A model generated the notes under the pieces. That model did not search any database. It saw nothing but the letters and a program-made list of their open reading frames with translations, and was not told the DNA's origin. A program made the translations under genes and the position numbers. This document shows, piece by piece, positions 11,365 through 41,693 of a stretch of 64,000 nucleotides of DNA (position 1 is the stretch's first letter; each line of letters opens with the position of its first letter). This DNA is from Dehalococcoidia bacterium. GTDB taxonomy: Bacteria; Chloroflexota; Dehalococcoidia; Plut-88900. Location: NCBI GenBank assembly GCA_965197585.1, contig OZ240215.1:288001-352000 (forward strand), in the 5' to 3' direction.

Positions 11365-11418
11365 GGTAGACCAAGCGGTACTGTAGACAGAACTTTTCAG
11401 TGGGTAGTGCCACTTTAG
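11365..11418 (+). repeat. Serine-recombinase att-like arm, copy A (reads GRPSGTVDRTFQWVVPL*)
   Basis: GGTAGACC-N7-ACTGTAGACAGAACTTTT; 54 nt ending in a stop, collinear with the copies at 36094, 38706 and 41640. Confidence 0.65.
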
Positions 11419-11452
11419 GAAGTGCAGTCGTAAAGGGCGAGGAAATTTTCAC

Positions 11453-11528
11453 GGTTCAAATCCGGCTAGGTGACCCCGACCGTATAAAAGGCAGAACCTT
11501 TACGATGAATTTTGGATTGGCACTTTGA
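11453..11528 (+). repeat. Serine-recombinase att-like junction, copy E (reads GDPDRIKGRTFTMNFGLAL*)
   Basis: GGTTCAAATCC lies 16 nt before GGTGACCC, the same spacing as GGTTCGAGTCC/GGTGGGCC at 11555/11571; followed by GGCAGAACCTTT. Confidence 0.6.
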
Positions 11529-13156
11529 GGAACAGTGCCAGTAGGTCGCTGCTTGGTTCGAGTCCAGTTAGGTGGGCCTGGCTTGACGGTAGACAGAACT
11601 CCGCCGTTCAGGGCCATGTCCTCGGTTCTCTTCCCCGGTATGGGGCTGTCGTCCGGCATGGGCACCGTATACCGGACGACAGCCTTGCCGGGCATGACGA
11701 CGATCTCCTTGACGAAGGTCTCGATGAAGGCCCTGCGCTCGGTCAGCTCGCTGTCCTTCAGGAACTCGCTCATGTCCTGGGCGTAGGTAGTGATGGTCTC
11801 CACGTCGTCCAGGACCTCCCTGCGCTGGGAGAGAATCGCCCTTGCCTCTTCCGCCGAAGCCTCAAGACGCCGCTGCCGCTCCCGGTGCTCTTTGATGCGG
11901 TCTGAGGCGTCGGCCATGTCGGTGTCGGTGGTCTCCACCAAGTGCCAGATGCGGCCCAGCTTGCGCTTCACGTCCTCAAGCTCATCCTCGATGGTCTCCA
12001 GCCGCTTGCGCTGCTCGGCGGCAACGCCGTCCATCCGTTCGTCCACCACCTTTACCAGGGCGCGGATGTTGCCGTCGGTGAGGATGTTGGAGCGAATGTT
12101 GCCGACGATCATCTCCTCGAATCGCCGGGCGTTGATCCTCGGCGAATCGCAGGCTTCCTTGCCGCGCTTCATGATGGACTGGCAGACGTAGTAGGAGAAC
12201 TGGCCGCTCTTGGCCTCCTGCCCGCTGAACGCCCGGTCGCACTCCTTGCACTTGACCAGACCGCTGAGCAGGTAGGTGCTCCCGACGCGGCGGGGGTGAG
12301 TCCTCTTGGGCGCCCTTGAGCGCATCAGCCGTTTCACGCGGCGGAATTGGGCCTTGGAGACGATGCTGGGGAACGCCTTCTCGACGCGCACCGGGTCGGC
12401 CTTGTCCTTGGCGTTCGTGCCCCAGACCAGAGCGCCTGTGTAGGCTTCGTTTCTGAGTAGGAGATGGACGCCGTTCTTGGACCAGAGCTTTCCTGCGGGG
12501 CTGGCGATGCCCTCGTCGTTGAGGGCGCGGGCGATGTCCAGCATCCCCCTACCGGCCTCGGCCATGTCAAAGGCGCTCTTGACGACACGGGCCGCATCCT
12601 CGTCGGGTTCCAGGGTGGGGCGCTTCTTGGGTCCGTCCTGGACGTAGACCTTGCGGAAGCCGTAGGGCACCCTGCTGGCGACCCAGAAGCCGCGAGACGC
12701 CGCCTCGCGCATCCCCCGCGTGACCTCCTGGGCCAAATTTTCGCTGTAGAATTCGTCCACGCTCTCGATGATGCCCTCAAGCAACCTGCCGGTGGCGGTG
12801 TCCTCGGCTTGCTCGGTTATGGAGACGACGCGGACGCCCTTGCGCCTGAGCATGGACTTGAAGGCGACGGCGTGCTCTCGCTTGCGTGTGAACCGGCTGA
12901 ATTTCCAGACCAAAATCTCCTGAAAGGGAGCATTGGGCTTGGCGGCCTCGTCGATCATCTTGCGGAACTCGGGGCGGTCGGCGATGCGCCCGCTCTCGGC
13001 CTCGTCCACGTACTCGCGGGCGACGATGTAGCCGTTCTTCTCGGCGTAGTCCCTCAGCGCCCTGAGCTGGGCGGAGACGGAGAGGTCCACGTCCTGGCGG
13101 TCGCTGGACACCCTGGCGTAGAGCGCTGCGGGGGTGTAGTCGGTCTTATCATTCAT
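11456..13156 (-). CDS. Large serine recombinase (resolvase + recombinase + zinc-ribbon/coiled-coil domains)
   Basis: ALYARVSSDRQ catalytic motif, EYVDEAESG..DRPEF, SRFTR, PYGF, YLLSGLVKCKEC, YYVC...C. AAGGAGG RBS before ATG 13156. Confidence 0.95.
   Translation of the reverse strand: MNDKTDYTPAALYARVSSDRQDVDLSVSAQLRALRDYAEKNGYIVAREYVDEAESGRIADRPEFRKMIDEAAKPNAPFQEILVWKFSRFTRKREHAVAFKSMLRRKGVRVVSITEQAEDTATGRLLEGIIESVDEFYSENLAQEVTRGMREAASRGFWVASRVPYGFRKVYVQDGPKKRPTLEPDEDAARVVKSAFDMAEAGRGMLDIARALNDEGIASPAGKLWSKNGVHLLLRNEAYTGALVWGTNAKDKADPVRVEKAFPSIVSKAQFRRVKRLMRSRAPKRTHPRRVGSTYLLSGLVKCKECDRAFSGQEAKSGQFSYYVCQSIMKRGKEACDSPRINARRFEEMIVGNIRSNILTDGNIRALVKVVDERMDGVAAEQRKRLETIEDELEDVKRKLGRIWHLVETTDTDMADASDRIKEHRERQRRLEASAEEARAILSQRREVLDDVETITTYAQDMSEFLKDSELTERRAFIETFVKEIVVMPGKAVVRYTVPMPDDSPIPGKRTEDMALNGGVLSTVKPGPPNWTRTKQRPTGTVPQSANPKFIVKVLPFIRSGSPSRI
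11555..11599 (+). repeat. Left att junction of the integrative element, inside the 3' end of the integrase
   Basis: GGTTCGAGTCCAGTTA-GGTGGGCC-TGGCTTGACGGTAGACAGAAC; the right arm is a 17/18 inverted match to 36073-36090. Confidence 0.8.
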
Positions 13157-13173
13157 GGGTGCGTCCTCCTTGC

Positions 13174-13371
13174 TCATTCCTGGTCGTTCCTGCGGGCCTC
13201 GGCCCGTTGGCGGCGCTCCTGCCGCAGCCACTCCCGCTCCTCCATGTACAGCCGGATGGCCTCGCGGAGGAACTCGCTCATGGTGCGGTCATCCTCCTTG
13301 AGCATCTGCTGCACCTGCTCCGCCAACTCCGGGGGCATGGAGAAGCTGATGACCTTCGTGGTCCTGGGCAT
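13174..13371 (-). CDS. CopG/ribbon-helix-helix regulator
   Basis: KVISFSMPPEL...RTMSEFLREAIRLY; immediately upstream of the integrase. Confidence 0.8.
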   Translation of the reverse strand: MPRTTKVISFSMPPELAEQVQQMLKEDDRTMSEFLREAIRLYMEEREWLRQERRQRAEARRNDQE

Positions 13372-13409
13372 ATTTTTTACCCTTTGCAGTAATACCTAGT
13401 CATACTCTT

Positions 13410-13439
13410 ATCATGAACGAACCGGGCCGCCGTTGTCAA
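13410..13439 (-). promoter_or_regulatory. Putative sigma70 promoter for the RHH-integrase operon
   Basis: TTGACA-N18-CATGAT on the minus strand, about 40 nt before the RHH start. Confidence 0.35.
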
Positions 13440-13597
13440 GGGGGGACAGCATGAAGAACGGGGGCAGCTCGGGCGGGAGCTTGGGAGCAGCCTCGGTCGT
13501 TCCGCCAGGTTCCGTGGGGAGTCCGCCCTCCGGCGTCTCCCCTCCGCGTTTCGTGATTCGTTCAAGCAGCTTCTTCAATTCGCTCGTTTCCTTTTCT

Positions 13598-13897
13598 CTA
13601 GGGGGTTGGGAAGTCCACGAGGCCGCTGCTGAGCAGCGCGGCCACGCCCTTGGCCGACAGGGCCAGAACCAGCCCGACCACCGCCATGACGACGGCGGTC
13701 TTGGCCTTGCCCCCGCCCCGCTCCTCGCCCCCCTCGGCCATCAGGATGAAGCCGGCCCAGACGATGGCGAAGAGGCAGAGGCCGGCGGCGGCGTAGACCA
13801 TCGCCGTGAGCACGCGGTCGAACTGGCGGAGCATCTCCTGCTCCTCCGGCGGGGCCGCGCCGGTGGTCGCCAGCGCAGCCCCGGCCAGAATCGTCAT
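13598..13897 (-). CDS. TrbC/VirB2-like pilin
   Basis: C-terminal 99 aa of the 13598..14671 frame: two hydrophobic helices separated by GGEERGGGKAK. Confidence 0.6.
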   Translation of the reverse strand: MTILAGAALATTGAAPPEEQEMLRQFDRVLTAMVYAAAGLCLFAIVWAGFILMAEGGEERGGGKAKTAVVMAVVGLVLALSAKGVAALLSSGLVDFPTP

Positions 13898-13911
13898 TGC
13901 CAATACCCGCC

Positions 13912-15642
13912 TCACCAGGGCCACTCCCATCCCAGCAGGTCGAACCACTGGCGCAGGCCGTCTGCGGGCTCCTGCTCGGCAGGCGGGTCCTCCGGCTCCG
14001 GCTGGGGCAGGACCAGCGCCTCGAAGGGGTCGTCGCTGCCGACGCCGGACGACGCAAGGGCGAGGGACTCGTCCCTGCTCCCCGTGACGGCCGCCCGCTC
14101 CACCACCTCGGCCTTCACGTGCTCGGGGTGGACGATGGTGAGCGTGACCTGCTTGTCGATCGTCCTGGCCGGCACGTATGCGTAGGCGTAGGCGGAGACG
14201 GTGTGTTCCGTCGTGGTGCCGTCGTCGTGGGTGACGGTGATGGTGTCGCTGTCGCTGTCGGAGTCGCTGGCCCCCGGGCGGTACAGGCTCACCGTCTCGG
14301 TGCGCTCCTCCGTCCGCTCCGGGTGGTGGGTGAGCACGGTCAACGGGGGGATGGGTATGCTGAGGCTCGCCTCCAGGCTCACGTCCACGCTCACGGCGTG
14401 AATCGCCTGACCATTCCCGATGGGCAGCCGGAAGCGGGTCTCGCCGTCGGGGATGAAGGCGACGCTTGTGCTCGACGCTCCCGTCGAGGCGGTGACGGTT
14501 CCAGTGACCGCCGTCACCTGGGCGTCCATCAGGGACGTCTGGGTGACGCTCTCGTGCCCGGCCACCGTCTGGAGCTCGACCGGGTGCTCGATGGACGTGA
14601 CGCACTCGGCCGTGATGACGCCGCTGACTGCTCCCGGCGTCCAGCCCAGGGACGAGAGCCTGACGTCGCAAAGCTCCCCGTCGATTTCAGGGAGCGGGTA
14701 CGGGATCTGGTCATGCTCGACGGTCAGCGCCCCGGCCTGGCCGAGGGTGTCCTCCCAGGACACCGTGAAGGACGGCGCGGGTCCGTGCAGGGGGAGGGAG
14801 TAGTCGATGCGCTCCCCCTCGGCGAGCGTTGCCGAGCCCCAGAAGCGCAGCCACGTTCCCTGCGGCCCGCCGAATGCCCGCACCCGGATGTCCAGGGCGG
14901 TGGCGGCCCGAAGGGTGACGGCGGCACGGTCGCCGGAGACGGTGAGCCCCTCGACGAATATCCGGCGTCCCTCCACAGGCTCGGTCAACTCGAAGTCGAT
15001 CTCGTCCCGCCAGGGCTCGTGGTCGTCGGCCAGGGCAGACTCCGGGACGGCCACGACCGCCGCCATGAGGACGGCCAGGGCCACGACCGGAATCCAGCCC
15101 ATGCGGGGCTTCCTGCGTCTGCTCTGCAAGGTCTCGGCTTTATGCCCTTGTCCGCGCCCGTTCCCGGCGTCCTTGTTCCTGCGCTTGCCGAACCAGCGCA
15201 TCCGCCCGTTGCGGCGCTCCTTGTTCTTGCGGGTCTTCCTGTTCTTGCGCAGCCTCGCCAGGGCGCGTCCGGCGCGTTTCGCCATCAGGCTCAGCGGGCA
15301 GGGGCCGCTCCTGACCGGCTGCGGGGGCGCGGGCGGCTCGCTCCTCACCAGCTGGGAGACCGGCCCTGCGTAGAGCCGCGCCCCCAGCCGGTACTTCAGC
15401 AGGTCGGCGGCCACCAACGGCAGCCGCCGACCGCCAATCTTCCCGACGACCATGACGATGCCGACCAGTCCGAAGAGGACGGCCAGGGCCATCCGCACCT
15501 CGGACGGGCCGACCGGGGCGTAGCGGTATGCGCCGTAGGACAGGGCGCACACCGCCGTCACCGCCACGACCTGCGGGAAGGTGAATCCCAGCAGCACCCG
15601 GTCCTCGGCCTGAACGTGAGTCGGTACCTCGTGTTCTCTCAT
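13912..15642 (-). CDS. PrgI-like membrane protein with large extracytoplasmic beta-rich domain
   Basis: N-terminus HEVPTHVQAEDRVLLGFTFPQV followed by two TM segments resembles PrgI; conjugation-gene context. Confidence 0.6.
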   Translation of the reverse strand: MREHEVPTHVQAEDRVLLGFTFPQVVAVTAVCALSYGAYRYAPVGPSEVRMALAVLFGLVGIVMVVGKIGGRRLPLVAADLLKYRLGARLYAGPVSQLVRSEPPAPPQPVRSGPCPLSLMAKRAGRALARLRKNRKTRKNKERRNGRMRWFGKRRNKDAGNGRGQGHKAETLQSRRRKPRMGWIPVVALAVLMAAVVAVPESALADDHEPWRDEIDFELTEPVEGRRIFVEGLTVSGDRAAVTLRAATALDIRVRAFGGPQGTWLRFWGSATLAEGERIDYSLPLHGPAPSFTVSWEDTLGQAGALTVEHDQIPYPLPEIDGELCDVRLSSLGWTPGAVSGVITAECVTSIEHPVELQTVAGHESVTQTSLMDAQVTAVTGTVTASTGASSTSVAFIPDGETRFRLPIGNGQAIHAVSVDVSLEASLSIPIPPLTVLTHHPERTEERTETVSLYRPGASDSDSDSDTITVTHDDGTTTEHTVSAYAYAYVPARTIDKQVTLTIVHPEHVKAEVVERAAVTGSRDESLALASSGVGSDDPFEALVLPQPEPEDPPAEQEPADGLRQWFDLLGWEWPW

Positions 15643-15671
15643 GTCTTTCTTTCCTCCCTTCTCACGCCGGC

Positions 15672-15980
15672 CTAGCCGGTGGGGGTGCTGCTGGTGCCGC
15701 CGCCGGGGGCTTCCGGCTCGGGCAGCACGTCGTCGATGTCGATTCCGGGGTCCACCACGGCGTTCATCACCAGCTCCACGACGCCGTAGGCGACCAGGGC
15801 CAGGACGATGCCCGCCAGGGCGGTCATCATTGCGCTCTTGCCGCGCTCCATCTGGTGGGGCGCTCCGCTGGCCGTCAGGTACAAGTACGCGCCGTAGATG
15901 AAGAATCCGACGCCCACCGCGCCGACGATCCCCAGCAGGATGCCCACCAGGTTCGATATGGTCTGTGTAAGGTCTTCCAT
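15672..15980 (-). CDS. TrbC/VirB2-like pilin
   Basis: MEDLTQTISNL...FFIYGAYLYLTASG..QMERGKSAM..ALAGIVLAL; AGGAG RBS upstream. Confidence 0.75.
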   Translation of the reverse strand: MEDLTQTISNLVGILLGIVGAVGVGFFIYGAYLYLTASGAPHQMERGKSAMMTALAGIVLALVAYGVVELVMNAVVDPGIDIDDVLPEPEAPGGGTSSTPTG

Positions 15981-16129
15981 TCCTTGCTCCTCTCTGTTAT
16001 CGAGCGTTCCGCTCGTCTCTATCGGTCGAAGTCCGTAAGCTCCGTTAGCTGCACATCTCTCCGCCTCCGTCGTGGTATTGGTCGGCGCTCTGTCGTCCGC
16101 GCCTGTGTGATTTCGTTGTCTCGGTCGGG

Positions 16130-17104
16130 CTACTCCCCGCTGCTCCTGGGCGCTCCGCCGCCGTCTCCCCCTGCCGATGGGGTCGCCATCGAGGCCGCCG
16201 AGCTCAGGCCGCTGGCTGCCGCCGACACCCCCGCGCTGGCCGCAATCGCTCCGACGGCCATGCCGCCCGGCCCTCCCGCCGCCCCGCTCATAAGCCCGAT
16301 GGTCCGGGCCGAGCGCATCAGCGACGACGGCAGGTTCATGCCGAAATAGAGCATCGAGAGCCAGGAGTCGAAGGTCCCGGCGTTGCCCATCATTGAGGGC
16401 ACCCGGGTCGCCATGTAGACGAAGGCCAACGACATGAGCAGCTTCCAGATCAGGTCCTGCACCGGCTCGAAGGCGGCGACCGACGCGAACTCGTTGAGGA
16501 AGCCGATTCCCAGGGCCAGGGCGATGAGCTGCACCGCCTGCTGGAACACCGTCGTCATGAACAGCCGCAGCCAGTGCCGTCCCCAGCCCGCCGTGTGGGG
16601 CAATATCCACAGCCCCAGCGCAATCGGGGCCAGGGCCAGCAGGATGTCTATGAGGGCCAGGCGCAGCACCATCTGCACGATCACGTAGAGGACGAAGAAG
16701 CCGTAGACCAGGTAGAGCAGGGCCAGGAGTTGCGCCATGCCCACGCTCCCGGCCTGGACGGCTCTGAGGAACGTGTCGAGGGGAGCCCTGAGCAGGTCTC
16801 CGGGGGTGACGCCCAGGGAGACGGCTATGAAGCCGGACACGGCGTCGGCCACGTCGAGGACCAGGGCGCACCACCACAGGGAAGACGCGGCGGCCACGAG
16901 GCCGAGCACGAGGCGGGGCACCATCTCCCGCCAGCCCGTCTGCTGGCGTCCAAGGTGCTCGCTCACGATGAAGCTCAGGCCCATCCAGCCGAGGATGACC
17001 ACCAGGGCGCCGGTTGTTATGGCCCAGACGACCATCCACGCCTGGCGGACCAGCTCGTGGGCGTAGGTGAGGTCGGGAGGGGTGCCGGTGAGGATGTCGC
17101 TCAT
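16130..17104 (-). CDS. TrbL/VirB6-like conjugal transfer membrane protein
   Basis: Multiple TM helices, LRLALIDILLALAPIAL..WILP.T..W...W motif, Gly/Ala-rich tail. Confidence 0.75.
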   Translation of the reverse strand: MSDILTGTPPDLTYAHELVRQAWMVVWAITTGALVVILGWMGLSFIVSEHLGRQQTGWREMVPRLVLGLVAAASSLWWCALVLDVADAVSGFIAVSLGVTPGDLLRAPLDTFLRAVQAGSVGMAQLLALLYLVYGFFVLYVIVQMVLRLALIDILLALAPIALGLWILPHTAGWGRHWLRLFMTTVFQQAVQLIALALGIGFLNEFASVAAFEPVQDLIWKLLMSLAFVYMATRVPSMMGNAGTFDSWLSMLYFGMNLPSSLMRSARTIGLMSGAAGGPGGMAVGAIAASAGVSAAASGLSSAASMATPSAGGDGGGAPRSSGE

Positions 17105-17107
17105 CGG

Positions 17108-17722
17108 CTACCCGCCCCCGCAGTTGTCGGCGTCCTCGCCGGACGCTCTTTCAACGACGCCGCAGAGGGTGCCGTGGACTCCCTCGACCACCCAGCCGGC
17201 GAAGGCCCTCGCCCAGCGCGCCGGGTTGAGGGCGGAGAGGATCTTGTCCCAGATGCGGCCCGGCTCGTGGAAGGGAATGACGCTGTAGAACTCGCCCCGC
17301 TTGCCGTCCTCGGCGACGGCCAGCATCACCAACAGGTACGCCCTGTCGCGGTCGAGGTCGGGCTGCTCGTCCAGGTCGGGGTACTCCCACGAGTACTCCC
17401 AGCCGTCGCTGCGCTCCTTCTCGCCCCCCTTGACCCGGTACATGGCGCTTATCCAGTCGCCGGTGTCGGCGTCGCGGACGGCGTAGAAGAGGTCCGCGAT
17501 CTCGCGGTCGAAGACGGGCCGGGCGACGAACTCGCCGCCCTTCTTGCGCTCGACGAACTCCCGGTCGGCGTTGACGAGGGTTATCTCGTCGCCGGGCGGG
17601 GTCTGGGCCAGGGCGATGTTGCTTGCGGGGATCGCCAGGAGCGCCGCCAATAGCAGCGCGGATGCCAGGGGAATAAACCGACTGAAAGACCGGAGTTTCG
17701 ATTTCAGCGCCAAGATGTTCAC
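17108..17722 (-). CDS. Secreted hypothetical protein, first gene of the conjugation-like operon
   Basis: Signal-peptide-like N-terminus ending ALAQ; abuts the VirB6-like gene. Confidence 0.6.
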   Translation of the reverse strand: MNILALKSKLRSFSRFIPLASALLLAALLAIPASNIALAQTPPGDEITLVNADREFVERKKGGEFVARPVFDREIADLFYAVRDADTGDWISAMYRVKGGEKERSDGWEYSWEYPDLDEQPDLDRDRAYLLVMLAVAEDGKRGEFYSVIPFHEPGRIWDKILSALNPARWARAFAGWVVEGVHGTLCGVVERASGEDADNCGGG

Positions 17723-18159
17723 CTCCCTGCCTATTGCCGCGAATCAGCGATTCGCCGCTGTCCCGAAAGAGTGTGGACAACCGGGACGCCCTGCATAACT
17801 ACTTGAAGGGGTACTCATATGAGCGCCCCTATAGGCCCTTGGTTTGGACACCCCTTCCGTGATGTCATTGGGGTGTACAGAGAAAGGACTTTGGCGACAA
17901 TTTGTCGTGGGTCGTGGTTTCGTAGCTAAAACAGGGGGAAATCCCCCCCTACAGGACGTAAAAAGTGAACACTTTGTCGTAAGGGCACGTTCCGCCCGCA
18001 GGGTGCAAAACGGGCCATAGTGGTGAACAAATCGCAGCCAGGAAAATCGGCGAAATCGAGCAAAACCACCCACACTGGTTGACAAGACGCAGCCCGTGGA
18101 AATTGGGGCCGGCGTCTGGGGCCGGGCCGGGGTCGAAAGTCTGGAATGGAGGCGTGTCG

Positions 18160-18993
18160 ATGGAAGCGAGGAAGCCGGTCTTCGGCAAGAGCAACAGCGT
18201 GGAGGACATGCAGCACGTGCGGCTCATGGCGCTGCTGCAAGAGCTGGAACGGGAGCACGGGCGCAAGGGAGCGGCGGCGGTCCTGGGGCTCGACCACCGG
18301 ACGCTGGGCGCCAGCCTGGACGAGGGCGTGCTGTCCCGGCGGGTCCGGGGCGCGTTGGAGCGGGCGTTGCAGGAGGGCATCGGCTCCGCCGCCGACCGGC
18401 AGCGGGAGCGCAACGACGGTCTGGAGAAGCGGTTGGAGGAGCTGGAGGGCGTCGTCGAGGCGCAGGGGAAGGAGATGCGGGTGGGACGCAGGGCGTTGGA
18501 GGACGCAATGCGGGCCGGGCGGGAGGAGCAGGCCAGGGCGCTCAGGGAGTTGGAGACAAGGCTGGCGCAGCCCCAGGCCGACGGGTCAGCCCGGGGAGAA
18601 GCGGCGACGCCCAGGCCCGGCCAGCCCAGGGGGAGGGTCACGCTCAGGCGGGAGTTCCCCGATCTCGTGACCCGCGAGCCCGCCGAGGACGACGAGGAGG
18701 TGTTCGCCGACGCCTGGGCGCTGATCGTCGAGTGGCGGGAGCTGAAGGCCGCGCACCCCAGCCGGGGCAGGGGTCCGTCGTGGCTTGCGACCCAGGAGCG
18801 GCTGCTGACGGTGGAGCTGACGCTGCTGGAAGAGCACGGGATGACGCTGCCCCCGGAGACGTACCCGCTGCGGGGCTTCGCACGGGACGGGCAGACCGGC
18901 TGGCGAAGGACCGCGCTCTACGACACGCGTAGAGCGCGGGCAAGGTGGGAGCTTCTCCGGCGCGTGCTCACCCTGTGGCTCTGGCGGAAGTAG
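18160..18993 (+). CDS. Hypothetical protein with N-terminal HTH-like segment and coiled coil
   Basis: GGAGG RBS before ATG 18160; GRKGAAAVLGLDHRTL HTH-like motif; heptad-rich middle. Confidence 0.6.
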   Translation: MEARKPVFGKSNSVEDMQHVRLMALLQELEREHGRKGAAAVLGLDHRTLGASLDEGVLSRRVRGALERALQEGIGSAADRQRERNDGLEKRLEELEGVVEAQGKEMRVGRRALEDAMRAGREEQARALRELETRLAQPQADGSARGEAATPRPGQPRGRVTLRREFPDLVTREPAEDDEEVFADAWALIVEWRELKAAHPSRGRGPSWLATQERLLTVELTLLEEHGMTLPPETYPLRGFARDGQTGWRRTALYDTRRARARWELLRRVLTLWLWRK

Positions 18994-19299
18994 CAGGCTC
19001 CGAGTGCGGGGAGTCGCGGTCAACTTTTGTGAACACTTTGGCCGCAATCTGCGGAAGGGGGCCTGCAGGCCCTCTCATCGCGGTGGCGGGCCGGGTGATA
19101 ATGACTGCGCTGTTTGGCTTTCTCCAAGGTTTCCGACCATAGAAACCTGGGTGCGTGGTCCCTGTTGCACGGGCATGACCGGAGGATGATTCGCTCTCCC
19201 CCGGTCGCCCACGAGGGAATGCTGCCGAAGCGGAGTTGACGCTGGTCCTTCGCAGGCAGCGCGGGCCGAAACGACGGAGTTGGCTTAGCCCTTCGTCCT

Positions 19300-19415
19300 C
19301 GGTCCAGTCCGGCGGTTGGAGTGATAAGCCCTTCGCCCGTTGGACACCCGTCCGGTGGTTGGGAGTTGATCGCTTCCGTCGCTGGACACCGGTCTGGCGT
19401 TGGGAGTCGATCGCT
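19300..19415 (+). repeat. Degenerate ~41-bp tandem repeats
   Basis: CGTTGGACACCCGTCCGGTGGTTGGGAGTTGATCGCT (19338-19374) and CGCTGGACACCGGTCTGGCGTTGGGAGTCGATCGCT (19380-19415), with a weaker copy at 19300-19332. Confidence 0.55.
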
Positions 19416-19748
19416 CTCGCCGTTGGATTGCCGGGACGGAGCGCGCCCCTTGCGCCTCGTCTTCACTTGGTCGGTCGGAGTGCGCCTGCCTGTTGCAGAC
19501 AGGTTTGTCACCCCGGCTGGCTCCTCATGCTCTGCGGCATGGCTGACACGCAGCCGGGCCGCAGCTTCGACATGCGCCGGTCTGCCGATGAAAGCAGGCT
19601 GGCCGCTTCCCGTCTCGCAGCTTCCCCACTGACGGTATCCACCCTGGGCAAGCTGCGCCTTTCTCCCATGCGCTGGCCTCCGATGAAGTCGTAGAACAGC
19701 CGCTTCCCCCATAGCAGTTCCCCCGGAGTCGATTCCCCGACGAATCAC

Positions 19749-33316: not shown

Positions 33317-33902
33317 GGCCGTAAACCGGTCTTTGGACTCATTCAAGGCGTTGCGCGACGGAATAGGGTACTTGCGCTCCATTAGCGTCTGTTTTGAGCC
33401 GGATGAGGAATCTCAGTCTAGACTTTCCAGTCTAATGGCTGCACATGCCATGGCTGCTGACGGCACGTTCGACGCTGGTGAGGCTGATAAGTTGTCGCGC
33501 TCCTATTTTCGGATGATCGTGGCGTTACTTTACGGTCTCTTGTACGCCGCGCTTGAACACTATGAAGACTTAATTCAAACCAATTCCCAACTTAAGCACG
33601 AAGAGTTGGAGGCAACTCTGCATGATATGCATGAATGCGGTCTATTTGAAGCCCTGAGACGGGTGCGGAACGCTGTCTTCCACGTCAAGCCTAACGAGAG
33701 CATTGACAATCTCGTCGAAGAAGTGCGGAGGCTCTCTACTGAGCACCAGATCGTGATACGTAAGGTCGAGGACTTGCTCTACGAGAGCACGGAGCAAGTT
33801 TTCCGCGGAACAGAAATCTACCGCCAACCGCGCGAGACCTTGGAGCAGGCGTATGAAGAAGCACTTGCTTACTATCGAGAACATCTGGCCGATGAGGACT
33901 GA
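33294..33902 (+). CDS. Hypothetical protein with HEPN-like RxxxxH motif
   Basis: LRRVRNAVFHV; start overlaps the upstream gene. Confidence 0.6.
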   Translation: MSSLDELKAVNRSLDSFKALRDGIGYLRSISVCFEPDEESQSRLSSLMAAHAMAADGTFDAGEADKLSRSYFRMIVALLYGLLYAALEHYEDLIQTNSQLKHEELEATLHDMHECGLFEALRRVRNAVFHVKPNESIDNLVEEVRRLSTEHQIVIRKVEDLLYESTEQVFRGTEIYRQPRETLEQAYEEALAYYREHLADED

Positions 33903-34444
33903 CTCGGTCAGTCATGCGACTGCAAGTGTCTGGTTCAACCCCGGCTACGGAATCTCAGAACTCTGGAAAGCCACTCAGCGAATGGCGAGTAGGCCAGACT
34001 TCGAAGAACTGATCGACTGCCCATTGACGACATCGCACGCATCCGCGAGCATGATCTATCACGAGGTCGAGGAAACCGATGGCAACTCACCTGGCGACCG
34101 AGAAACACGTTACCATCCAGATCGACGGCGTGCGTGCTGGCAATCCGGGCTCTGGGCGGCTTGAAGGGGGCTGATACTCGGGGAGCATCGCCGCAGGCTC
34201 TGCGTTAGCTACCGTCGCACGACCAACAACCCCATGGTGAAGGCTTGGTCTACGACAGCCTCTCCCCCCCAGATCGGGCAGTAACAGACCTTGGTGGTCT
34301 CATAGGGTGCTTCTGCGGGTAGGTGAACGGCAGGTATACTGATGGTTGACTCTGCGGTACAACATTGCGTCGAGAGGAGGGACGGCATTGGCATGAGACA
34401 GCACCCTTCTGTCCGCATACGGCGTTTCTGGGGGCTACGTTTAC

Positions 34445-35260
34445 ATGGCAGCGGCTAGCAGAGTGGGGCGCTATCGCACCGGCATAGCGAACCTACTTTC
34501 AAAGTTGGTAGCGGTGGTGGGTGAGTCTGAACGGCGCCTGGATGTCACTATTGAAGGAGACGAGGCTTCTGCACGAGCAGTTCTTGAAGACGATCCGACC
34601 AATGCTATTCGCATCATGTGCGGCCTGTTGCTCCGCAAATCAAGACTGCACATGATGGCAATGCTCCGTGCCAACGAAACCGGCAACGTGCATTCGCTGG
34701 CTGTTCAGATGCGTCCCGTTCTCGAGTGCGCTGGACAGGTTGTACTCATCTTCCATAATCTGATAATCGATCCGGAACGAGGTGCGAGTGTAGTCAGTGG
34801 CTACATAAACGCAGACTACTACAGAACGGTCAAGAGGCTCACGAGGGGTGACCTCAGCCACAAAGAGCTACTCACTAGGATCTCGGAGGCAAGCGGGATG
34901 TCGGAAGAGGAGTTAGTCAAGGGCAGAGGTCTTAAGCAAGCGGATAAAGTAGCACCGCTGGAGGGGGGCGAGGGCTGGTATGGATACCTGAGCGAGCGCT
35001 TCTGTCACGGGAGGGCGAACTGGAAAGGACATTCGTGGCAGGGAGGCGTCAGTACGATGAACAGGGTTCAGGACGAGTATACCTTTGCTGGTTTGATGGA
35101 CTACTTGGTGAACCAAGTAGCAGTCATGAATGCGCACGCGGCGCTGTGCCCTGTGACAGGAGAGGTGGCACAAGAGCGCGTAGAATCCGCCCTGGCTGAA
35201 TTGAGGGAGGTGCGTGCCGCGACTAAGGCGTTGCGGGACGGTGCGGGCGGGGCTGAATGA
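34445..35260 (+). CDS. DUF5677-like / HEPN-related hypothetical protein
   Basis: MRPVLEC and WYGYLSERFCHG fit the R...E and Y..LS...H pattern. Confidence 0.5.
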   Translation: MAAASRVGRYRTGIANLLSKLVAVVGESERRLDVTIEGDEASARAVLEDDPTNAIRIMCGLLLRKSRLHMMAMLRANETGNVHSLAVQMRPVLECAGQVVLIFHNLIIDPERGASVVSGYINADYYRTVKRLTRGDLSHKELLTRISEASGMSEEELVKGRGLKQADKVAPLEGGEGWYGYLSERFCHGRANWKGHSWQGGVSTMNRVQDEYTFAGLMDYLVNQVAVMNAHAALCPVTGEVAQERVESALAELREVRAATKALRDGAGGAE

Positions 35261-35290
35261 TCTCGGGAGGGAGGAAAAGGCAAGGAAGAT

Positions 35291-35845
35291 ATGACGACTA
35301 GGGAGAGCGATCAGCGCACGCGGTGCGAACGGTATCGCGACCTACTCGGTGAGCTCGCTCGTATCCACCTGGAGATTGACGAGCCGACCCGCAAGATGCA
35401 GGAAAATGAACCTGATTGGATCGGCCGCCTACGAAAGATTTGCCTTCATGTGAGGGCGATCAATGGCTGGGAAATCGGGCCCGACGTTGAGCACGTGATG
35501 GCCACAGAGATTCGGGCAGCGTACGAACAAATGGATGTCGTATGGAAGCGCTTGCCCACCACGGTCCGGCTAGACGAGATAGACGACGACTGGTGGGCCA
35601 GGGAGGCTAGCAGCGGGATGCTCGCTACGTACGATCATCCAACGCCGCAGAGCTTGATGCTTACGGCTGGGCGTGGCGGTTTCCGCAATGACGACAGCAA
35701 CATTAAACATATACAGCTTGCCTTGTGGCTAGGCCAACTCGGTCTGGGGTATGGGCTTGCTCTCGTTCACCTATCGCAGGTGCTGGGCGGCGAAGGGGAC
35801 ATCATGGCTCGCGTGACCGCCGTGGCGAGCAAGTTTGCGGGGTAA
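35291..35845 (+). CDS. Hypothetical protein
   Basis: AAGGAAG RBS; LATYDHPT weakly resembles a HEPN-related His motif. Confidence 0.5.
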   Translation: MTTRESDQRTRCERYRDLLGELARIHLEIDEPTRKMQENEPDWIGRLRKICLHVRAINGWEIGPDVEHVMATEIRAAYEQMDVVWKRLPTTVRLDEIDDDWWAREASSGMLATYDHPTPQSLMLTAGRGGFRNDDSNIKHIQLALWLGQLGLGYGLALVHLSQVLGGEGDIMARVTAVASKFAG

Positions 35846-36072
35846 CCGTATTGGCGGTACGTACGGCGATTAGTGACAAGACTCCTTGCCTACTAATTCG
35901 ATCTCTAAGGGGAGCCAAGCTGAAACTACACCGAATCTGGCGCCACTATCGCTAAGGAGGCCAGAGCGGAGTCGGTTTCATGGGCATGAGTAGCGGCGAT
36001 GGTAGTTCTCGTTATGCTCGCGGAAGCCCAGCCCTTGGTCAGACTGTCAAGCTGAACCACATCTCGAAGATG

Positions 36073-36147
36073 GTTCTGTCTATCGTCAAGTTTGGTGGGC
36101 CGGGTAAGACTGAATTGCGAACTTTTCGGTGCGAGGTTTCTATCTGA
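36073..36147 (+). repeat. Right att junction of the integrative element fused to att arm B (reads GGPGKTELRTFRCEVSI*)
   Basis: GTTCTGTCTATCGTCAAG-TTT-GGTGGGCC-GGGTAAG-ACTGAATTGCGAACTTTT. Confidence 0.8.
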
Positions 36148-36280
36148 GGACCGCCAATCCCAGCCCAACTGAGGGAGCTCCGCGTAGGTGTGGCCCCGGA
36201 GCGTGTACAGCAGGGTCCAGTCAGTCGGATCTGCAAATGACTTTCCGAACGTCGACTGCGCTTTCCGGCAGTGTGCAGAG

Positions 36281-37366
36281 CTACCGAAATTCCTCCCTGA
36301 GCATCTCAGCCGCCAGGGACTCATTCCTGAGCTTCAAGTACGCCTCGTCGAGCGGGATATCGGCAGCGCTTCCCGGCGCGAAACCGCAGTCGGGGTGCAG
36401 CAGTACCCGCTCAGGCGCGACGTATTGGACGGCCCGCCTGACGCGGGCGGCAATCTCGTCTGGCGTGTCTATGTGGCTGCTGCGGCAGTCGACGCATCCC
36501 AGACCGATATCGAAGCGTTCTGGTATGTCGCGCAATACGGCGAAGTCGCCCGCCGCCGGTATCGCAAACTCCAACATGAGAATATTGACCTTGAGACCGG
36601 CCAAGGCTTGGAGAATCGGCTCGTATCCGCCTTCGCCGACCCATCCTGCGCGACCCTTATTGCGCCGGCACAGGTGGACCGCCAACCGGACTCCGTCTAC
36701 TCCCTTGACGACGCGGTTCAGTAAGTCGACGCAGTACGCCATCTCGGCCTGCGGGTCGTCGTAGTCCGCCCGCACCTTCGGGTCCACGAACAGGCACAGG
36801 TGAGGGTCGTCAATTTGCGCCACCGCTACCCCTTCGTCGCCTAGGGCTTTGAGCTCTTGCCGAAGCACGGGCACGAGCGCCTCTGTGAAGTCACGTCGAG
36901 TGGGATACGCGGCTATTGACAGTTCGGGGTCCCACATCCGCTCACCTATCAGGTATGGCGATGGTATGGCGACCTTGACATCGCGTCCTGTATGCAGTTT
37001 GAGGAACCCTGCCTCCCTCGCTAGCAGGCCGGGGTTTGCGACTTCGATTTTCGAAGTGACGACGTGCCACGTCTGGCGCTGTCCGAGGACTTCCTTGATG
37101 GATAGATCGAACCCGCTGCAGATATCGGCTATCACCCCAACATATGACTTTCTGCGCCATTCCCCGTCGGATATGATGTCGATGCCGGCAAGCTCCTGCA
37201 TCTGCGCGACGTATGGTATGGCGGAGTCCATCATCCGCCGAAAGTCGCCCGAAGAGCCGCCCCCTTCGACCTGTGATTCAATCAGGTCTCGCACGTATCG
37301 AGGGCGCGGCATGGAGCCGATGACGGTGGTTGGGAACAGGTCTCTTTCCATTTGGCTTTCAGGCAA
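36281..37366 (-). CDS. Cobalamin-independent methionine synthase II family (single-barrel MetE-like)
   Basis: TTVIGSMPRP, DIISDGEWRR, QIDDP, zinc ligands HLC, LEFA, PDCGF. Confidence 0.88.
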   Translation of the reverse strand: MPESQMERDLFPTTVIGSMPRPRYVRDLIESQVEGGGSSGDFRRMMDSAIPYVAQMQELAGIDIISDGEWRRKSYVGVIADICSGFDLSIKEVLGQRQTWHVVTSKIEVANPGLLAREAGFLKLHTGRDVKVAIPSPYLIGERMWDPELSIAAYPTRRDFTEALVPVLRQELKALGDEGVAVAQIDDPHLCLFVDPKVRADYDDPQAEMAYCVDLLNRVVKGVDGVRLAVHLCRRNKGRAGWVGEGGYEPILQALAGLKVNILMLEFAIPAAGDFAVLRDIPERFDIGLGCVDCRSSHIDTPDEIAARVRRAVQYVAPERVLLHPDCGFAPGSAADIPLDEAYLKLRNESLAAEMLREEFR

Positions 37367-37415
37367 GATGTCGTGCGGTTTCTCTGCTCTTGGTCGGACG
37401 TGGCTCAGGAACAGG

Positions 37416-38180
37416 TTAGATCGCGAACCGCATCCAGTCGGCGGTGGCTAGATGGTAGTCCTGGATGGTGTCGACCTCATGGTAGTCACCGGGTACTGCG
37501 ACGCAGTGTACCGGAATCCCATCTCGGATCATCCGGTCGAGTAGATGAATCACATACGCCATGCGGAAGGGTCTGCCATCTGCGATGACTTGCTCATCGC
37601 CGAGTTCGGCGTGGAGTTCGTCGTAGAATTGCAGGAACTGAGAAGCGCCCTCGGCCGTCATCTTGATCACGCCCGAATACTCTCCGGATGCCTCGTGCGG
37701 CTTGATCGTCCGTGAGACCTCCACCACGCGGACGCCGTCCACGAGAATCTTCTCGGCGTCCGACTCCGGGTGCATACTCCGAAACACATACCTTTCACGC
37801 CAACGAGTGTCCATGACGAGCGTGATGTCGTGTGGCGAATCCTGAAGCGCCTTCACTGCGTCGCCGAGGTACAGCGTGTCGGTGTATGTCGCATAGAAGC
37901 CGCGAGCCATGTGTTCACGGGCACAGACCAGGGAAGCGAGGATGTTGGTCGTGGGCCAAGTGGGATTTTCCACATAGGAGAGATTTGGGTAGGCGTCCTG
38001 AACCACGTCCATGAGATACCCGCCTACGAAGACAAACCGATCCAGACCATTCTGTCGAAACGCACTTAGCGTCCAATCGAGAATTCTGGCGCCCGCTACT
38101 TCAGTAAAGCACTTTGGTTGCGACGCGGTGAAGGGCATAAGGCGTTTGCCCCGTCCGGCCCCGAGGAGGATGACGTTCAT
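37416..38180 (-). CDS. Nucleotidyltransferase (LicC/phosphocholine or phosphonate cytidylyltransferase-like)
   Basis: ILLGAGRGKRL..T...PKC, TNILASL, GEYSG, EVDTIQD. Confidence 0.85.
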   Translation of the reverse strand: MNVILLGAGRGKRLMPFTASQPKCFTEVAGARILDWTLSAFRQNGLDRFVFVGGYLMDVVQDAYPNLSYVENPTWPTTNILASLVCAREHMARGFYATYTDTLYLGDAVKALQDSPHDITLVMDTRWRERYVFRSMHPESDAEKILVDGVRVVEVSRTIKPHEASGEYSGVIKMTAEGASQFLQFYDELHAELGDEQVIADGRPFRMAYVIHLLDRMIRDGIPVHCVAVPGDYHEVDTIQDYHLATADWMRFAI

Positions 38181-38705
38181 GCCTTTGTGTCGCTCCGTAC
38201 CGCTAGTTCCCGCTCAGACTACCGAGAAATCGAGGCGGGCGCAAATCGGACCGTCACGGGGTCGAGCGTCCGCTTCTCAGACGGGCTGATGCCGAAGGAC
38301 GGCGCAGCCTGCACCGTCCGCTCAGGACGGGGTAGCGATGCCCGCTTTCGACTCGTCGACTCCGTGCGTGGCGCTCCGTCGGGGCTGCCTTGAGAGCTCA
38401 CGGTCTCCAGCGAGCGGTACGAGAGTTCGAACACCCACGTCGGTTCACACCAGAGGCGAAGGTCCCTGCTTGCGAGCGGGCCCTGGACTCCACGGCGACA
38501 GAGCGGTCGCTGAGATTCCGTTCAACGCAGAACCTCCCCGTCCGAACAGCTCCCAGACGCTGGAGGTGAGGATCAGAACGGTGTCAGGACGACGCCTGTA
38601 GTCATACTCCGCTATGGGCTCTCAGCCGGTTCGTAGAGTGACCGGCGCCGTCGGGCCAGACCTTGGCGGACCACGCCGAACCTGCGACCGTCGTGGAGGG
38701 GTGAT

Positions 38706-38759
38706 GGTGGGCCTAAGAAGACTGAATTGCGAATTTTTCGGTGGGAGGTCCTCATATAA
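38706..38759 (+). repeat. att-like arm C (reads GGPKKTELRIFRWEVLI*)
   Basis: GGTGGGCC-TAAGAAG-ACTGAATTGCGAATTTTTCGGTGGGAGGT, collinear with 36094-36147. Confidence 0.75.
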
Positions 38760-38854: not shown

Positions 38855-41323
38855 TCATCCCGTTGGCTGGTGGGCCACTGATTCGTTGAGGTCAGCGTTC
38901 CGGTCAACGCGCCACTTAATGTTTTCTATTTCGTAAGACAACATCGAACTCATAGGTAACCAATTGAAACCGTCTGAGGCGCTCTCCAAGTTGACCCATT
39001 GTGAATCTAAGTACTGGCGGAATGCTTCCGCCCTCGCCAATCGGTCATTTATATAGGCCACATCCGAAATTTTATCCCGCCATTCCCTTGCAACGATAGG
39101 TGTGTCTACCACTACCGCGTCAACATAAGTAAATTTGCCAATAAGTTTTTGGTAGTAATAGGAGCCTATTGTAGTGATCCTGTAGCGGCGCGGTTGAAAG
39201 TCGAACCGTTCCCCGACAACGTCCTTGGTTTCTGTTTCTACCAATTTCTGAGCGAGCAATTTTTCTAGTACGCCTGCTATTTGGATAGGTTGAAAACCGA
39301 GGGATTGGGCATACGCGTAGATCTCCTCAGCGTCGACGTATCCGCTGTTAGCCGGTGGCCTTGCTTCCGATCCGATGAACGCCAAAGCGATCGGTCCCAA
39401 GAAATGTTCCCTACCGTCCGGAGACCGTATGTCGAACAAATTCGCGATTTCGGATGCCCTTGGATCGTAATCTCGTTGATCACCATAGATCACTGCCCGC
39501 AAAAATTCATGCAAGGGTACTGTGTACGAGCCAGAATCGCGGTAAATTTCCAATATCTTACCCGTGTCGACGTTTCCACTGCCCACAAACACCCGGATGA
39601 AATCTAACGCCAGCCGGATGTTGCCTCCGCAAACGTTATCTACGAATTCGATCAATTCGACATTCTTGTCAAATGACAATTTAGTAACGCTCAGAAAATC
39701 CGATAAATCGTCGAGATTGACCGACATGCCCACGCCTTCAATCGATTGTCCGATCTGTCCAAGTGCCAAGAGATTGATTGCATATTGCAATCTTTTCTGT
39801 ATCACTCTATCGACCCTAGGTGGACTAATCGTAAACGCTTTGACATGGTACGCACTCAACGCCCCTCCAGCTTTTGATTTGTGAAAGGTTTCGGGGCGCA
39901 AAGAAACAAACACCATGGCTGGCCAAAGTTCGGCCATACTTTGACCGATCAAAAACGCTTTCTGCTGAAAATCGTCAGTGCGTTGGTCGACGTTGTCCAG
40001 AAATATCACGATCTGCTGTTTTCGCCCTTTGTGGATGTGTTCCAGGCACCGCTTAAGGTGTTCCTGCGTGTTGCTTATCTTGGATTCTAGAAGCGCAATT
40101 CTTTTCAGCTCGTATTCTGGTCGATTCAACTCGCGAAGGGACCCGTAGATGCCTTTATCAAACGATTGTAGATCGACGTTGTAGACGCCATGGACAAAAT
40201 TGCGGTCAGTAATGTCGATGGAGTACAACTCGTCTAACTGCCGCGAAATTTCTTCTTGGAGATAATGGTCTAACTCCGCTTCTAACGTTGGTTTGACACC
40301 CAAGTCTAGATACAGAATGATTGCGTCTTTGAGTATGTCCGCGGCCTCCACGTTGATGAAGTAGCGAACGAACATGGTCTTACCGACACCAACGTCACCG
40401 ATCAGTAATACAGGCCGACGAGTGGCACTCTGGGCCAACATCTCTGCAGTAATGACGGACTTCCCGCCTTTCTCTGTCGCCGGAGACAGCGATGGACCAG
40501 ATAAAGACTCTTGGAATGCTACAGAATATCTGGTTTGGAGAATGGATTTGCTGATCAGTGCGTATTGCGAAAGGGCACCGCTGTCGGCATAACAAGCGGT
40601 CAAAAACTCTTTCTCGTTCGGTGGAAGTTTACCCACGTCTTCGATGATCAGATCGCCAAAAATCTGTAGGTTTGATTGAAGTTCGTTGCGGACCTGATGT
40701 CTGGGGTAGTTATGTACTCGAACTGATAGCTTGTCCGGCGGAGGTCGATCGCCAGTGTTCTGGAGACGTGAGGCTAAGCCTCTAGCGGATACACCGTGAT
40801 GAGACAAGCAATCCCACAAGTCTCGGAATCCGTCGCGCATGTGGACCAGAGACGGTAACACCAAAGCTTGGCCTTTCATTGGTGCGATGCTGTCGGTGCG
40901 GCTCGCCAAGAACCCAACTATTTGATGACCATTGCAAACTGCACCGAAAGGAACTCCCCTTGTTTGACAATATGCCATCGCTTGCTCGACAGCTTTGAAT
41001 ACGTCGGGCGCTTCTCTCCGGAATCTTTCGAGCGGGTAGAAAAGGCCGTCAAACCCGGCAGGGATCGAAAAGTATACGTCCTCTTTCTTGGCTTCAACGA
41101 TAAGGGTTACGGAAGGTTTTCCGAGAGAGTAATCGGTATATGTGCCTTCGTGATTGTCCTCATTGGCGCAGTCCCATTTGTCCCACCCGAGGCACTCAAA
41201 CAGTAAGCGATCAATAAACTGAAGCCTCGTCGTCGCCTCATTCCTGTACGCTTCGTCAACCTCGGCAACTTCTGTAATGAGGTTGTCGAGGTTTTTTAGT
41301 GATTCCAAGTAATCAACTGCCAT
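38855..41323 (-). CDS. HsdR-N-type PD-(D/E)XK nuclease fused to a P-loop ATPase; candidate defence protein
   Basis: NEATTR..TDY..IVEAKK..QAMAY nuclease motifs; Walker A GDVGVGKT; Walker B IVIFLDNVD. Confidence 0.75.
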   Translation of the reverse strand: MAVDYLESLKNLDNLITEVAEVDEAYRNEATTRLQFIDRLLFECLGWDKWDCANEDNHEGTYTDYSLGKPSVTLIVEAKKEDVYFSIPAGFDGLFYPLERFRREAPDVFKAVEQAMAYCQTRGVPFGAVCNGHQIVGFLASRTDSIAPMKGQALVLPSLVHMRDGFRDLWDCLSHHGVSARGLASRLQNTGDRPPPDKLSVRVHNYPRHQVRNELQSNLQIFGDLIIEDVGKLPPNEKEFLTACYADSGALSQYALISKSILQTRYSVAFQESLSGPSLSPATEKGGKSVITAEMLAQSATRRPVLLIGDVGVGKTMFVRYFINVEAADILKDAIILYLDLGVKPTLEAELDHYLQEEISRQLDELYSIDITDRNFVHGVYNVDLQSFDKGIYGSLRELNRPEYELKRIALLESKISNTQEHLKRCLEHIHKGRKQQIVIFLDNVDQRTDDFQQKAFLIGQSMAELWPAMVFVSLRPETFHKSKAGGALSAYHVKAFTISPPRVDRVIQKRLQYAINLLALGQIGQSIEGVGMSVNLDDLSDFLSVTKLSFDKNVELIEFVDNVCGGNIRLALDFIRVFVGSGNVDTGKILEIYRDSGSYTVPLHEFLRAVIYGDQRDYDPRASEIANLFDIRSPDGREHFLGPIALAFIGSEARPPANSGYVDAEEIYAYAQSLGFQPIQIAGVLEKLLAQKLVETETKDVVGERFDFQPRRYRITTIGSYYYQKLIGKFTYVDAVVVDTPIVAREWRDKISDVAYINDRLARAEAFRQYLDSQWVNLESASDGFNWLPMSSMLSYEIENIKWRVDRNADLNESVAHQPTG

Positions 41324-41639
41324 TGTTGGCCCCTCGATTTGTAGGTTCTACGCCGCTCCCGCGAGCCAAACCCTTAGAATATGCTGCCCAGAGGTAAGGC
41401 ACAATCCACGATACATCGCACGCGCATCTAGGTCAACGAAACTGATTGTACCGGCCTCTTCCCGGCTTTGATCGCTATTCCAATTCCAAGCTGAACGGCG
41501 AATCGAACGGTGACGCGGTAGCGGCTGCTGCCCAAGGCAGACCATTGGCTTCATTGGAACATCGGATATCAACTCTGCCCAATAGAACAGAGACTTCGCG
41601 GTCGGCGGGTTATGAATTCAGTCTTGTTAGGTCGAAGAA

Positions 41640-41693
41640 AGTGGGCTAGAGGGGACTGTACTGCGAACTTTTTGTTGGGAAGTGTCGCTGTAG
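41640..41693 (+). repeat. att-like arm D (reads SGLEGTVLRTFCWEVSL*)
   Basis: AGTGGGCT-AGAGGGG-ACTGTACTGCGAACTTTTTGTTGGGAAGT; 54 nt to the stop, as in A, B and C. Confidence 0.7.

Follow-up and report, generated by a model that had tools for sequence, protein, structure and literature searches.

Repeated arms in a Dehalococcoidia genome as probable attachment half-sites of serine integrases that cross over within their own genes

A 64-kb stretch of a Dehalococcoidia bacterium genome (contig OZ240215.1, positions 288,001 to 352,000 of the forward strand; hereafter the window) contains co-oriented copies of a short sequence, the arms, on both sides of a 24.5-kb element that carries a large serine recombinase (LSR). 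The arms are probably halves of attachment (att) sites used by a family of serine integrases that cross over within the integrase gene itself, and the locus would then be a hotspot of piled-up, decayed islands. This reading is carried by three observations: the anatomy of the sites, the coding signature of their tails and the point at which homologous recombinases diverge from one another.

Anatomy of the site copies

Six site copies were recognised in the window and were numbered J0 to J5; window positions are those of the whole 64-kb stretch. A preliminary description had listed five arms, four of which followed a common pattern. Scanning with that pattern recovered the same four (11365, 36094, 38706 and 41640, with 1, 0, 0 and 2 mismatches, respectively), and a repeat search of the window placed them in one family (D10). 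In the shuffled window 0.02 matches were expected, and four were reached in 0 of 100 shuffles. The peptides of all five arms, read on the + strand, were identical to those given previously, and the length to the stop was 54 nt in four arms; the looser arm at 11469 was also present and measured 60 nt. The sixth site, which had been overlooked, is a half copy at 11571-11599 that comprises a core and a 21-nt arm. Its likeness to the other copies ends at GAAC because the recombinase gene follows.

The complete repeat, or module, has three parts: an 8-bp core, GGTGGGCC, with a central GG; a half-site of attP type, 21 nt long, with a T-loop-like GAAC at its end; and the last eight codons or so, with the stop codon, of an LSR gene. 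The 21-nt spacing from the core to the end of GAAC is common to all five window arms. The sites and the element between them are as follows.

J0, 11365..11418, + strand: module copy with core GGTAGACC, a 21-nt arm ending GAAC, and tail GRPSGTVDRTFQWVVPL followed by a stop
11453-11468: tRNA-T-arm-like half-site directly before J1
J1, 11469..11528, + strand: variant module with core GGTGACCC, an arm ending GAAC, and tail GDPDRIKGRTFTMNFGLAL followed by a stop
J2: predicted attL of the 24.5-kb element, with a B-type T-arm-like half-site (11556-11570), core GGTGGGCC (11571-11578) and P' arm (11579-11599)
11600..36072: element body, GC content 0.53-0.71 per kb window
36073..36122: predicted attR of the element, with P arm (36073-36093), core (36094-36101) and type-1 arm (36102-36122)
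J3, 36094..36147, + strand: module copy with tail GGPGKTELRTFRCEVSI followed by a stop
J4, 38706..38759, + strand: module copy with tail GGPKKTELRIFRWEVLI followed by a stop and then by a short hairpin-like inverted repeat
41609..41629: inverted copy of the type-1 arm, GTTATGAATTCAGTCTTGTTA, 10 nt from the J5 core on its left side
J5, 41640..41693, + strand: module copy with core AGTGGGCT and tail SGLEGTVLRTFCWEVSL followed by a stop

The inverted arm beside J5 is read as a putative relic P arm. Relatives of the J1-type arm were found in genome G000 at 191882 (-) and 2215688 (-); with 11469-11528 of the window they form a second tail family, GDPDRIKGRTF..., that has the same core and the same 21-nt geometry and is probably the native tail of another LSR lineage. 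The distance from J0 to J1 is 104 nt and that from J1 to the J2 core is 102 nt. Among 40 distinct module copies collected from this genome and ten relatives, a T-arm-like site and core occurred again at +89 to +91 from the start of the module in eight, as scored by a crude regular expression, which gives units of ~104 nt. Units of this length were also seen at ~191,800 in G000.

The element and its recombinase

The window contains a single LSR gene:

11456..13231, - strand: large serine recombinase, 591 aa, with Resolvase, Recombinase and Zn_ribbon_recom domains

The Pfam matches (PF00239, 1.9e-32; PF07508, 2.2e-20; PF13408, 2.4e-12) stand in the order expected of an LSR, and there were weak matches to the integrase chains of SPbeta YokA and TP901-1. 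The preliminary description did not give the strand of this gene. Since the gene lies on the minus strand, the + strand peptides of the arms are not tails of the resident LSR. Instead the gene is read leftwards, out of the element and across the core at 11571-11578, so that the P' arm and core supply the codons of residues 545-554 (VLSTVKPGPP), and the last 37 residues come from flanking DNA, antisense to the T-arm-like site and to J1. In a reconstructed circular form, the open reading frame (ORF) would end in GPPNLTIDRTIFEMWFSLTV followed by a stop.

The two ends of the element, 11579-11599 and 36073-36093, are inverted repeats (17/21 identical), each of which abuts an identical GGTGGGCC. This is the shape of a serine-integrase attP split by integration, with predicted attL at 11556-11599 and attR at 36073-36122. 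The GC content is ~0.60-0.71 over 12-31 kb, compared with 0.53-0.59 in the left flank (1-11 kb). The same non-recombinase element end adjoins a module in three relatives (loci L039, L022 and L038). A search of viral contigs yielded a single locus (25% identity).

Coding signature of the tail

In the sample of 40 module copies the first in-frame stop was codon 18 in 34, with no earlier stop in any copy, and this peak was absent from the other two frames. The stop codons among 30 fetched loci were TAG (11), TAA (10) and TGA (4). Information content at the first, second and third codon positions was 1.39, 1.50 and 0.75 over tail codons 11-17, and 1.33, 1.26 and 1.34 over arm codons 3-10; third positions were freer in the tail only. 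Conservation stopped at the stop codon, and the sequences downstream of LSR-linked copies were unrelated, with the single exception of a short hairpin common to J4 and one other locus.

The conserved tail is apparently translated, now or formerly, and the module is read as the native 3' end of a recombinase gene in the attP configuration. The earlier proposal that the + strand reading is a genuine integrase C-terminus was borne out by these stop positions, by the freer third codon positions and by close homologues that end in the same peptide (below). The proposal that the arms encode alternative tails was not: apart from 11469, which belongs to the second family, they are copies of one conserved native tail. 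Nor does any integrase in the window read into the arms; that of the element is encoded on the other strand and passes through the sixth site alone.

Homologues and junctions

The 120 best homologues of the window LSR (66-98% identical) were alike up to ...ALNGSVLSTVKNGG, or ...VKSGPP in the window subgroup, and diverged beyond it. Since this divergence begins right after ...VLSTVKNGG, the att site must lie inside the 3' end of the LSR ORF. The tails were classified with crude regular expressions, and the class 'other' holds further tRNA-like tails that are visible by eye; the counts were:

GGPxxT[EV]LRTFRWEVx[IL] followed by a stop, the peptide noted earlier: 16/120
antisense of another LSR 3' end: 22/120
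antisense-tRNA peptide: at least 33/120
LT[IV]DRT[IV]FEM (type-2): 3/120
other: 45/120
no anchor: 1/120

The junctions were then surveyed in DNA at 80 LSR loci, all of them in metagenome-assembled genomes (MAGs) titled Dehalococcoidia or Chloroflexota, as are the nearest relatives of the window LSR. Eight loci had no recognisable arm and one mis-hit of the regular expression was removed, which left a recounted set of 71 junctions. The forward core was present in 61 of these, with GGTGG invariant and core positions 6-8 variable; the reverse core (GGCCCAC) was present in the other 10. By partner, the junctions and the position at which GAAC ends were:

tRNA-like partner, 32/71: +15 in 30
antisense LSR partner, 21/71: +21 in 17
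module partner, 7/71: +21 in 6
other partner, 11/71: mixed

The invariant GGTGG and the spacing of the partners place the crossover at the central GG of the core. Relative to tRNA targets, element-type half-sites have the distal motif displaced outwards by 6 bp (+21 as against +15). Both features by which LSR att sites are recognised, inverted half-sites and a difference in spacing between attB and attP, thus appear to be present, and the view that the arms are serine-recombinase att sequences is upheld by the spacing at the 71 junctions together with the inverted element ends. For the LI (A118-family) integrase, the part of Rutherford et al. (2013, PMC3783163) that deals with its sites describes half-sites inverted about a central dinucleotide and a zinc-ribbon-domain motif that is 5 bp nearer the centre in attB than in attP; by analogy, the 6-bp shift seen here may parallel that of LI. 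Unlike in LI, as described there, the distal motif mimics a tRNA T-loop and the putative site lies inside the integrase ORF.

Convergent LSR gene pairs with overlapping 3' ORF ends were also observed (L052, L053, L054 and L055, in G006, G001 and G011, and others). There were at least 11 across four relatives and none in this genome. The homology matches of the two genes overlap by ~40-105 nt, with a shared att site between the genes; one gene of each pair is 70-79% identical to the window LSR and the other 54-73% (54-58% in most pairs).

Distribution in this genome and in relatives

A scan of related genomes with the arm pattern, a check proposed earlier, found the module in 10 of 11 other genomes of the family (8/8 of the same genus and 2/3 from other genera); 20 genomes drawn from other families of the class contained none. 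Overall there were 60 module matches and 0 for a control pattern. Two or three copies in the same orientation, grouped within 2-50 kb, recurred in six relatives (G001, G003, G005, G006, G008 and G011), which fits the earlier suggestion of tandem accumulation at one hotspot.

Four LSR loci were found in this genome by tblastn, at 299459, 381989, 495096 and 2665810, and five relatives had from 5 to 41 matches each. Two LSR paralogues of this genome run in antisense into tRNA-Glu genes, where the geometry is again 15+8+21, and an LSR remnant lies at a tRNA-Ala gene. Searches with the core or the arm did not find the far ends of the two tRNA-Glu elements.

Synteny with all eight same-genus genomes ends at window position 10985 and has not resumed by 64000; in the five of these that were examined, the sequence differs right after the stop of a gene for a pyridoxal phosphate-dependent decarboxylase (9737-10978). 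Because synteny does not return in this interval, the variable region is much larger than the array of arms. For lack of synteny here, cassette boundaries could not be compared across relatives, as had been proposed.

Proposed course of events

In this LSR family of Dehalococcoidia-titled genomes, the att site would lie inside the 3' end of the recombinase ORF, so that each recombination would swap everything after ...VLSTVKNGG (...VKxGPP for the reverse core). The natural targets would be tRNA 3' ends, where the spacing of GAAC from the core is of the attB type, 15 nt as against 21 nt. The window may then be seen as an accretion hotspot of three layers. The first would be the two ~100-bp units (J0 and J1). 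The second would be the one intact 24.5-kb element, whose own LSR is of the reverse-core class and which would have inserted between a T-arm-like half-site and a module to give attL at 11556-11599 and attR at 36073-36122. The third would be the three orphan modules (J3-J5), taken as the ends of earlier elements whose contents decayed to remnants of 2.6 kb and 2.9 kb; for the first of these segments, decay is suggested by a truncated element gene at its right end. We infer the sequence of these events and that the remnants have lost their mobility.

Several points count against this course of events. The length of the ~104-nt units is conserved without explanation. The left flanks of J0, J4 and J5 are neither clean P arms nor recombinase ends, and this genome has no forward-core LSR able to read the modules. 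A structure model of a native-tailed homologue (P0025, alignment of 62; mean predicted local distance difference test score, pLDDT, 60; predicted template modelling score 0.29) was uninformative on the role of the tail, with pLDDT <50 over residues 505-550. No recombination product was seen in the assembled contigs of four runs. Finally, LSR-plus-module junctions occur in contigs of megabase size, so that the module could supply the target side of a dedicated site and not the element side.

The last point leads to an explanation that overlaps in part with the one preferred here and that we regard as possible, well short of probable. The module, together with the T-arm-like half-site on its left, would be a self-renewing target: an element that landed there would keep its native full-length integrase and remake the module at its other end, and the arrays and ~100-bp units would be by-products. 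The native tail does occur, at 7 of the 71 chromosomal LSR junctions and in 16 of the 120 proteins, several of these loci being in contigs of 1.7-4.5 Mb; a B-type half-site directly precedes the module in 10 of 40 copies, as scored by a crude regular expression; a T-arm-like site plus a module was used by the window element and by the elements of three relatives; and the unrelated sequences downstream of the stop codon are also as this explanation predicts. In contrast, the attP-type spacing of the right half is not expected of an attB under the LI integrase model, no unoccupied and occupied pair of the same locus was found among the relatives, and the structure model gave no support for a function of the tail. 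The fuller proposal, that the module is at once a self-renewing landing pad and a donor of the native integrase C-terminus, with the in-ORF crossover acting as a sensor of state and site, seems rather doubtful to us.

The segments between the arms

The three right-hand arms bound two segments, which had been described as cassettes of an integron-like array.

36148..38705: segment 1, with a Meth_synt_2-like ORF (36281-37366, - strand) and a nucleotidyltransferase-like ORF (37416-38180, - strand)
38252..38698, - strand: gene fragment at the right end of segment 1 (residues 193-341 of 372), ending 8 nt from J4
38855..41323, - strand: cargo of segment 2, an 822-aa STAND-like ATPase with NACHT/AAA matches below Pfam cut-offs; GC content ~0.48-0.49

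All segment genes are on the minus strand and the arms are on the plus strand. Full-length members of the family to which the gene fragment belongs occur at five other loci of the genome; at three of these a recombinase gene follows 5-10 kb downstream. PADLOC gave no match for the segment genes. The designation of segment 2 as a nuclease cassette did not hold, since the matches were to an ATPase, below threshold, with no nuclease domain.

It had been proposed that the arms bound integron-like, integrase-less cassettes that are moved in trans by a large serine recombinase, and this we consider unlikely. The arms are indeed co-oriented, and the flanking segments lack a recombinase: tblastn with the LSR found none of the four genomic loci at 36.1-41.7 kb, where small ORFs were not all searched for tyrosine integrases. 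The resident LSR also used a module as half of its attB. There are precedents as well: the relevant part of McMurdie et al. (2011, PMC3146451) proposes, for the half or so of Dehalococcoides ssrA islands that lack an integration module, mobilisation in cis by accretion, and the concept of cis-mobilisable elements (CIMEs) is set out in a review of integrative conjugative and integrative mobilisable elements (ICEs and IMEs; PMC5704250), in the section available. However, J3, J4 and J5 have right halves of one and the same P' type, their left halves are broken or displaced, and an attL/attR pair, that is, a B-type with a P-type half, was recognised at none of the three; LSRs are reported, in the part of PMC3783163 concerned, not to recombine other pairings of sites. 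Mobilisation in trans is therefore unsupported. Furthermore, a gene is truncated at the right end of segment 1, 8 nt short of J4, and the cargo is multi-gene and antisense to the arms. The corresponding array in G005 holds LSR fragments only and no tRNA gene, which is a sign of decay. The segments look like decayed remnants of tandem accretion, and accretion followed by decay fits them better than does an integron-like system.

Contig evidence on excision was sought in Logan contigs of four metagenome runs. One contig (X19) from one run joined 36102 to 41641, as movement in trans might predict; its short side has only 20 letters, and it was rejected as evidence of excision. Records that appeared to go back from 41628 to 38707, with 13 letters between, were rejected also: the 13 letters closely match the flank of J5 itself, and the records are therefore taken as homologous junctions from elsewhere. 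Such joints, which fall inside a much-repeated module, are not evidence. Summed over contigs, depth in the module bins (35968-36201, 38542-38775 and 41584-41817) was several-fold to >100-fold that of their neighbours, with the smallest excess at 41584-41817. The depth shows only that module and arms are present in those communities in many copies.

RNA genes and a ~290-nt repeat

An origin of the arms from a tRNA gene or some other RNA gene, as displaced 3' fragments that tyrosine-integrase islands left behind, is highly improbable: T-arm-like sequences do adjoin some arms, and a ~290-nt non-coding repeat close to P4-like tyrosine integrase ORFs has a module copy at its end in three cases, but ARAGORN found 0 tRNA or tmRNA genes in the window, Rfam found no family there at gathering score and, at E up to 1 over four other loci, only one partial tRNA, downstream of one copy, the implied acceptor stem would start with CCACC, and the arm bears a coding signature and the LSR reading frame. 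A tRNA or tmRNA origin was rejected on the null results of ARAGORN and Rfam.

The ~290-nt repeat itself was located in G000 at 154747-155036 (+), 428504-428793 (+) and 499689-499976 (-), with partial copies at 3384187-3384468 (-) and 762172-762363 (+). It has stops in all frames, ends in a T-arm-like site and a module, and gave no Rfam match at E up to 1. The sole module copy of the relative G002 lies inside such a repeat. At J0 the repeat is not present at full length, nhmmer giving a match to model positions 191-290 only (E 7e-4).

Other features of the window

The remaining genes of note within the element are:

13598-14671 and 15672-17039, - strand: ORFs with type IV secretion system (T4SS) pilin domains
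21853-30327, - strand: 2824-aa repeat protein, with internal repeats of ~290-330 nt and fn3 and SWM_repeat matches

Beyond J5, on its right, ORFs between 41.9 and 46.1 kb had HATPase_c_3 and weak PADLOC matches. They include:

42936-44873, - strand: HATPase_c_3 protein with weak partial PADLOC matches (type II restriction endonuclease, MzaB and TmtA models)
45134-46141, - strand: 335-aa ORF with weak PDC-M38A and PD-Lambda-5 matches

These two ORFs may be defence cargo.

Comparison with known systems

Integrons possess a tyrosine integrase, IntI, an attI site and the promoter Pc, and their cassettes are single, promoterless, co-oriented ORFs that each end in a folded attC. The window resembles them in that co-oriented sites separate unrelated cargo at one locus. 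It differs in that the one recombinase found at the locus is a serine enzyme, no attI, attC or Pc architecture was recognised, the cargo is multi-gene and on the opposite strand, and one boundary cuts a gene. In some mycobacteriophages attP lies inside the repressor gene, the integrase is a tyrosine integrase, and integration swaps the 3' end of the repressor gene, with a regulatory role that has been shown. Here it is the integrase itself that is affected.

The closest likeness is to the tandem islands that lie downstream of ssrA in Dehalococcoides. In the part of that account that describes them (McMurdie et al. 2011, PMC3146451), DsiB is a serine recombinase of ~540 aa encoded next to attL on the reverse strand, and dsiB always overlaps attL, so that its stop codon and C-terminus vary between copies; the authors asked whether dsiB is complete only on the circle or beside another island. 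As with DsiB, so described, the window LSR adjoins attL on the reverse strand and its ORF runs across attL, and tandem islands stand beside a tRNA-like 3' end. The target in the window is not ssrA; the tmRNA gene of this genome is at 1082944-1083296 with no LSR nearby. Integration with a 20-bp direct repeat at ssrA, as given in the passages on those islands, was not found, the targets here being tRNA-Glu and T-arm-like sites and, more widely, many tRNA genes, other recombinase 3' ends and the module itself. Genes for a second, small serine recombinase (DsiA) and for RecF-like, ParB and Mom proteins, which make up the integration module of those islands, were not found beside the LSR, where the ORFs scanned had T4SS pilin matches or no Pfam matches and small ORFs were not all scanned.

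The relevant section of the ICE/IME review (PMC5704250) describes tandem accretion and CIMEs, in which a resident element decays to an integrase-less remnant between att sites, and the window fits such accretion followed by decay. The cases treated there mostly involve tyrosine integrases, with long direct repeats of a gene end; the repeats of the window, in contrast, are serine-recombinase half-sites that also encode an integrase tail. A CIME has no integrase and keeps functional attL and attR; in the segments here no integrase was found, and recognisable attL/attR pairs are not retained.

By analogy, the window is a variant of the kind of Dehalococcoides island already described. Compared with the description of DsiB, and by description only, what is new is the conserved, apparently translated native tail, T-loop-like half-sites at P-type (attP) as against B-type (attB) spacing, and two orientation classes of the core. 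Term searches of the open-access literature found no paper on a conserved native tail encoded by attP or on T-loop-like half-sites of serine integrases.

Significance

The junctions amount to hundreds of natural events in which one recombinase lineage came to lie beside a tRNA gene (many isoacceptors are represented), another recombinase gene or the native half-site of the lineage itself, and in which the crossover and the attB-type or attP-type spacing are legible directly from the sequence. This data set should be useful for understanding, and perhaps for retargeting, serine integrases towards conserved tRNA ends. For annotation, it accounts for a frequent repeat and for many 'recombinase' ORFs of odd length in Dehalococcoidia assemblies.

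If the module does act as a renewable pad and tail donor, an element beside a module would keep a full-length native integrase and one in a tRNA gene would acquire a junk tail. The in-ORF crossover would then sense the excised or integrated state and the kind of site, and might adjust the stability or directionality of the integrase; repeated landings on such pads would have left the arrays and ~104-nt units as their trace. The question raised in 2011 becomes testable in this family, as that of a regulatory role for the variable integrase C-terminus that an att site within the gene creates.

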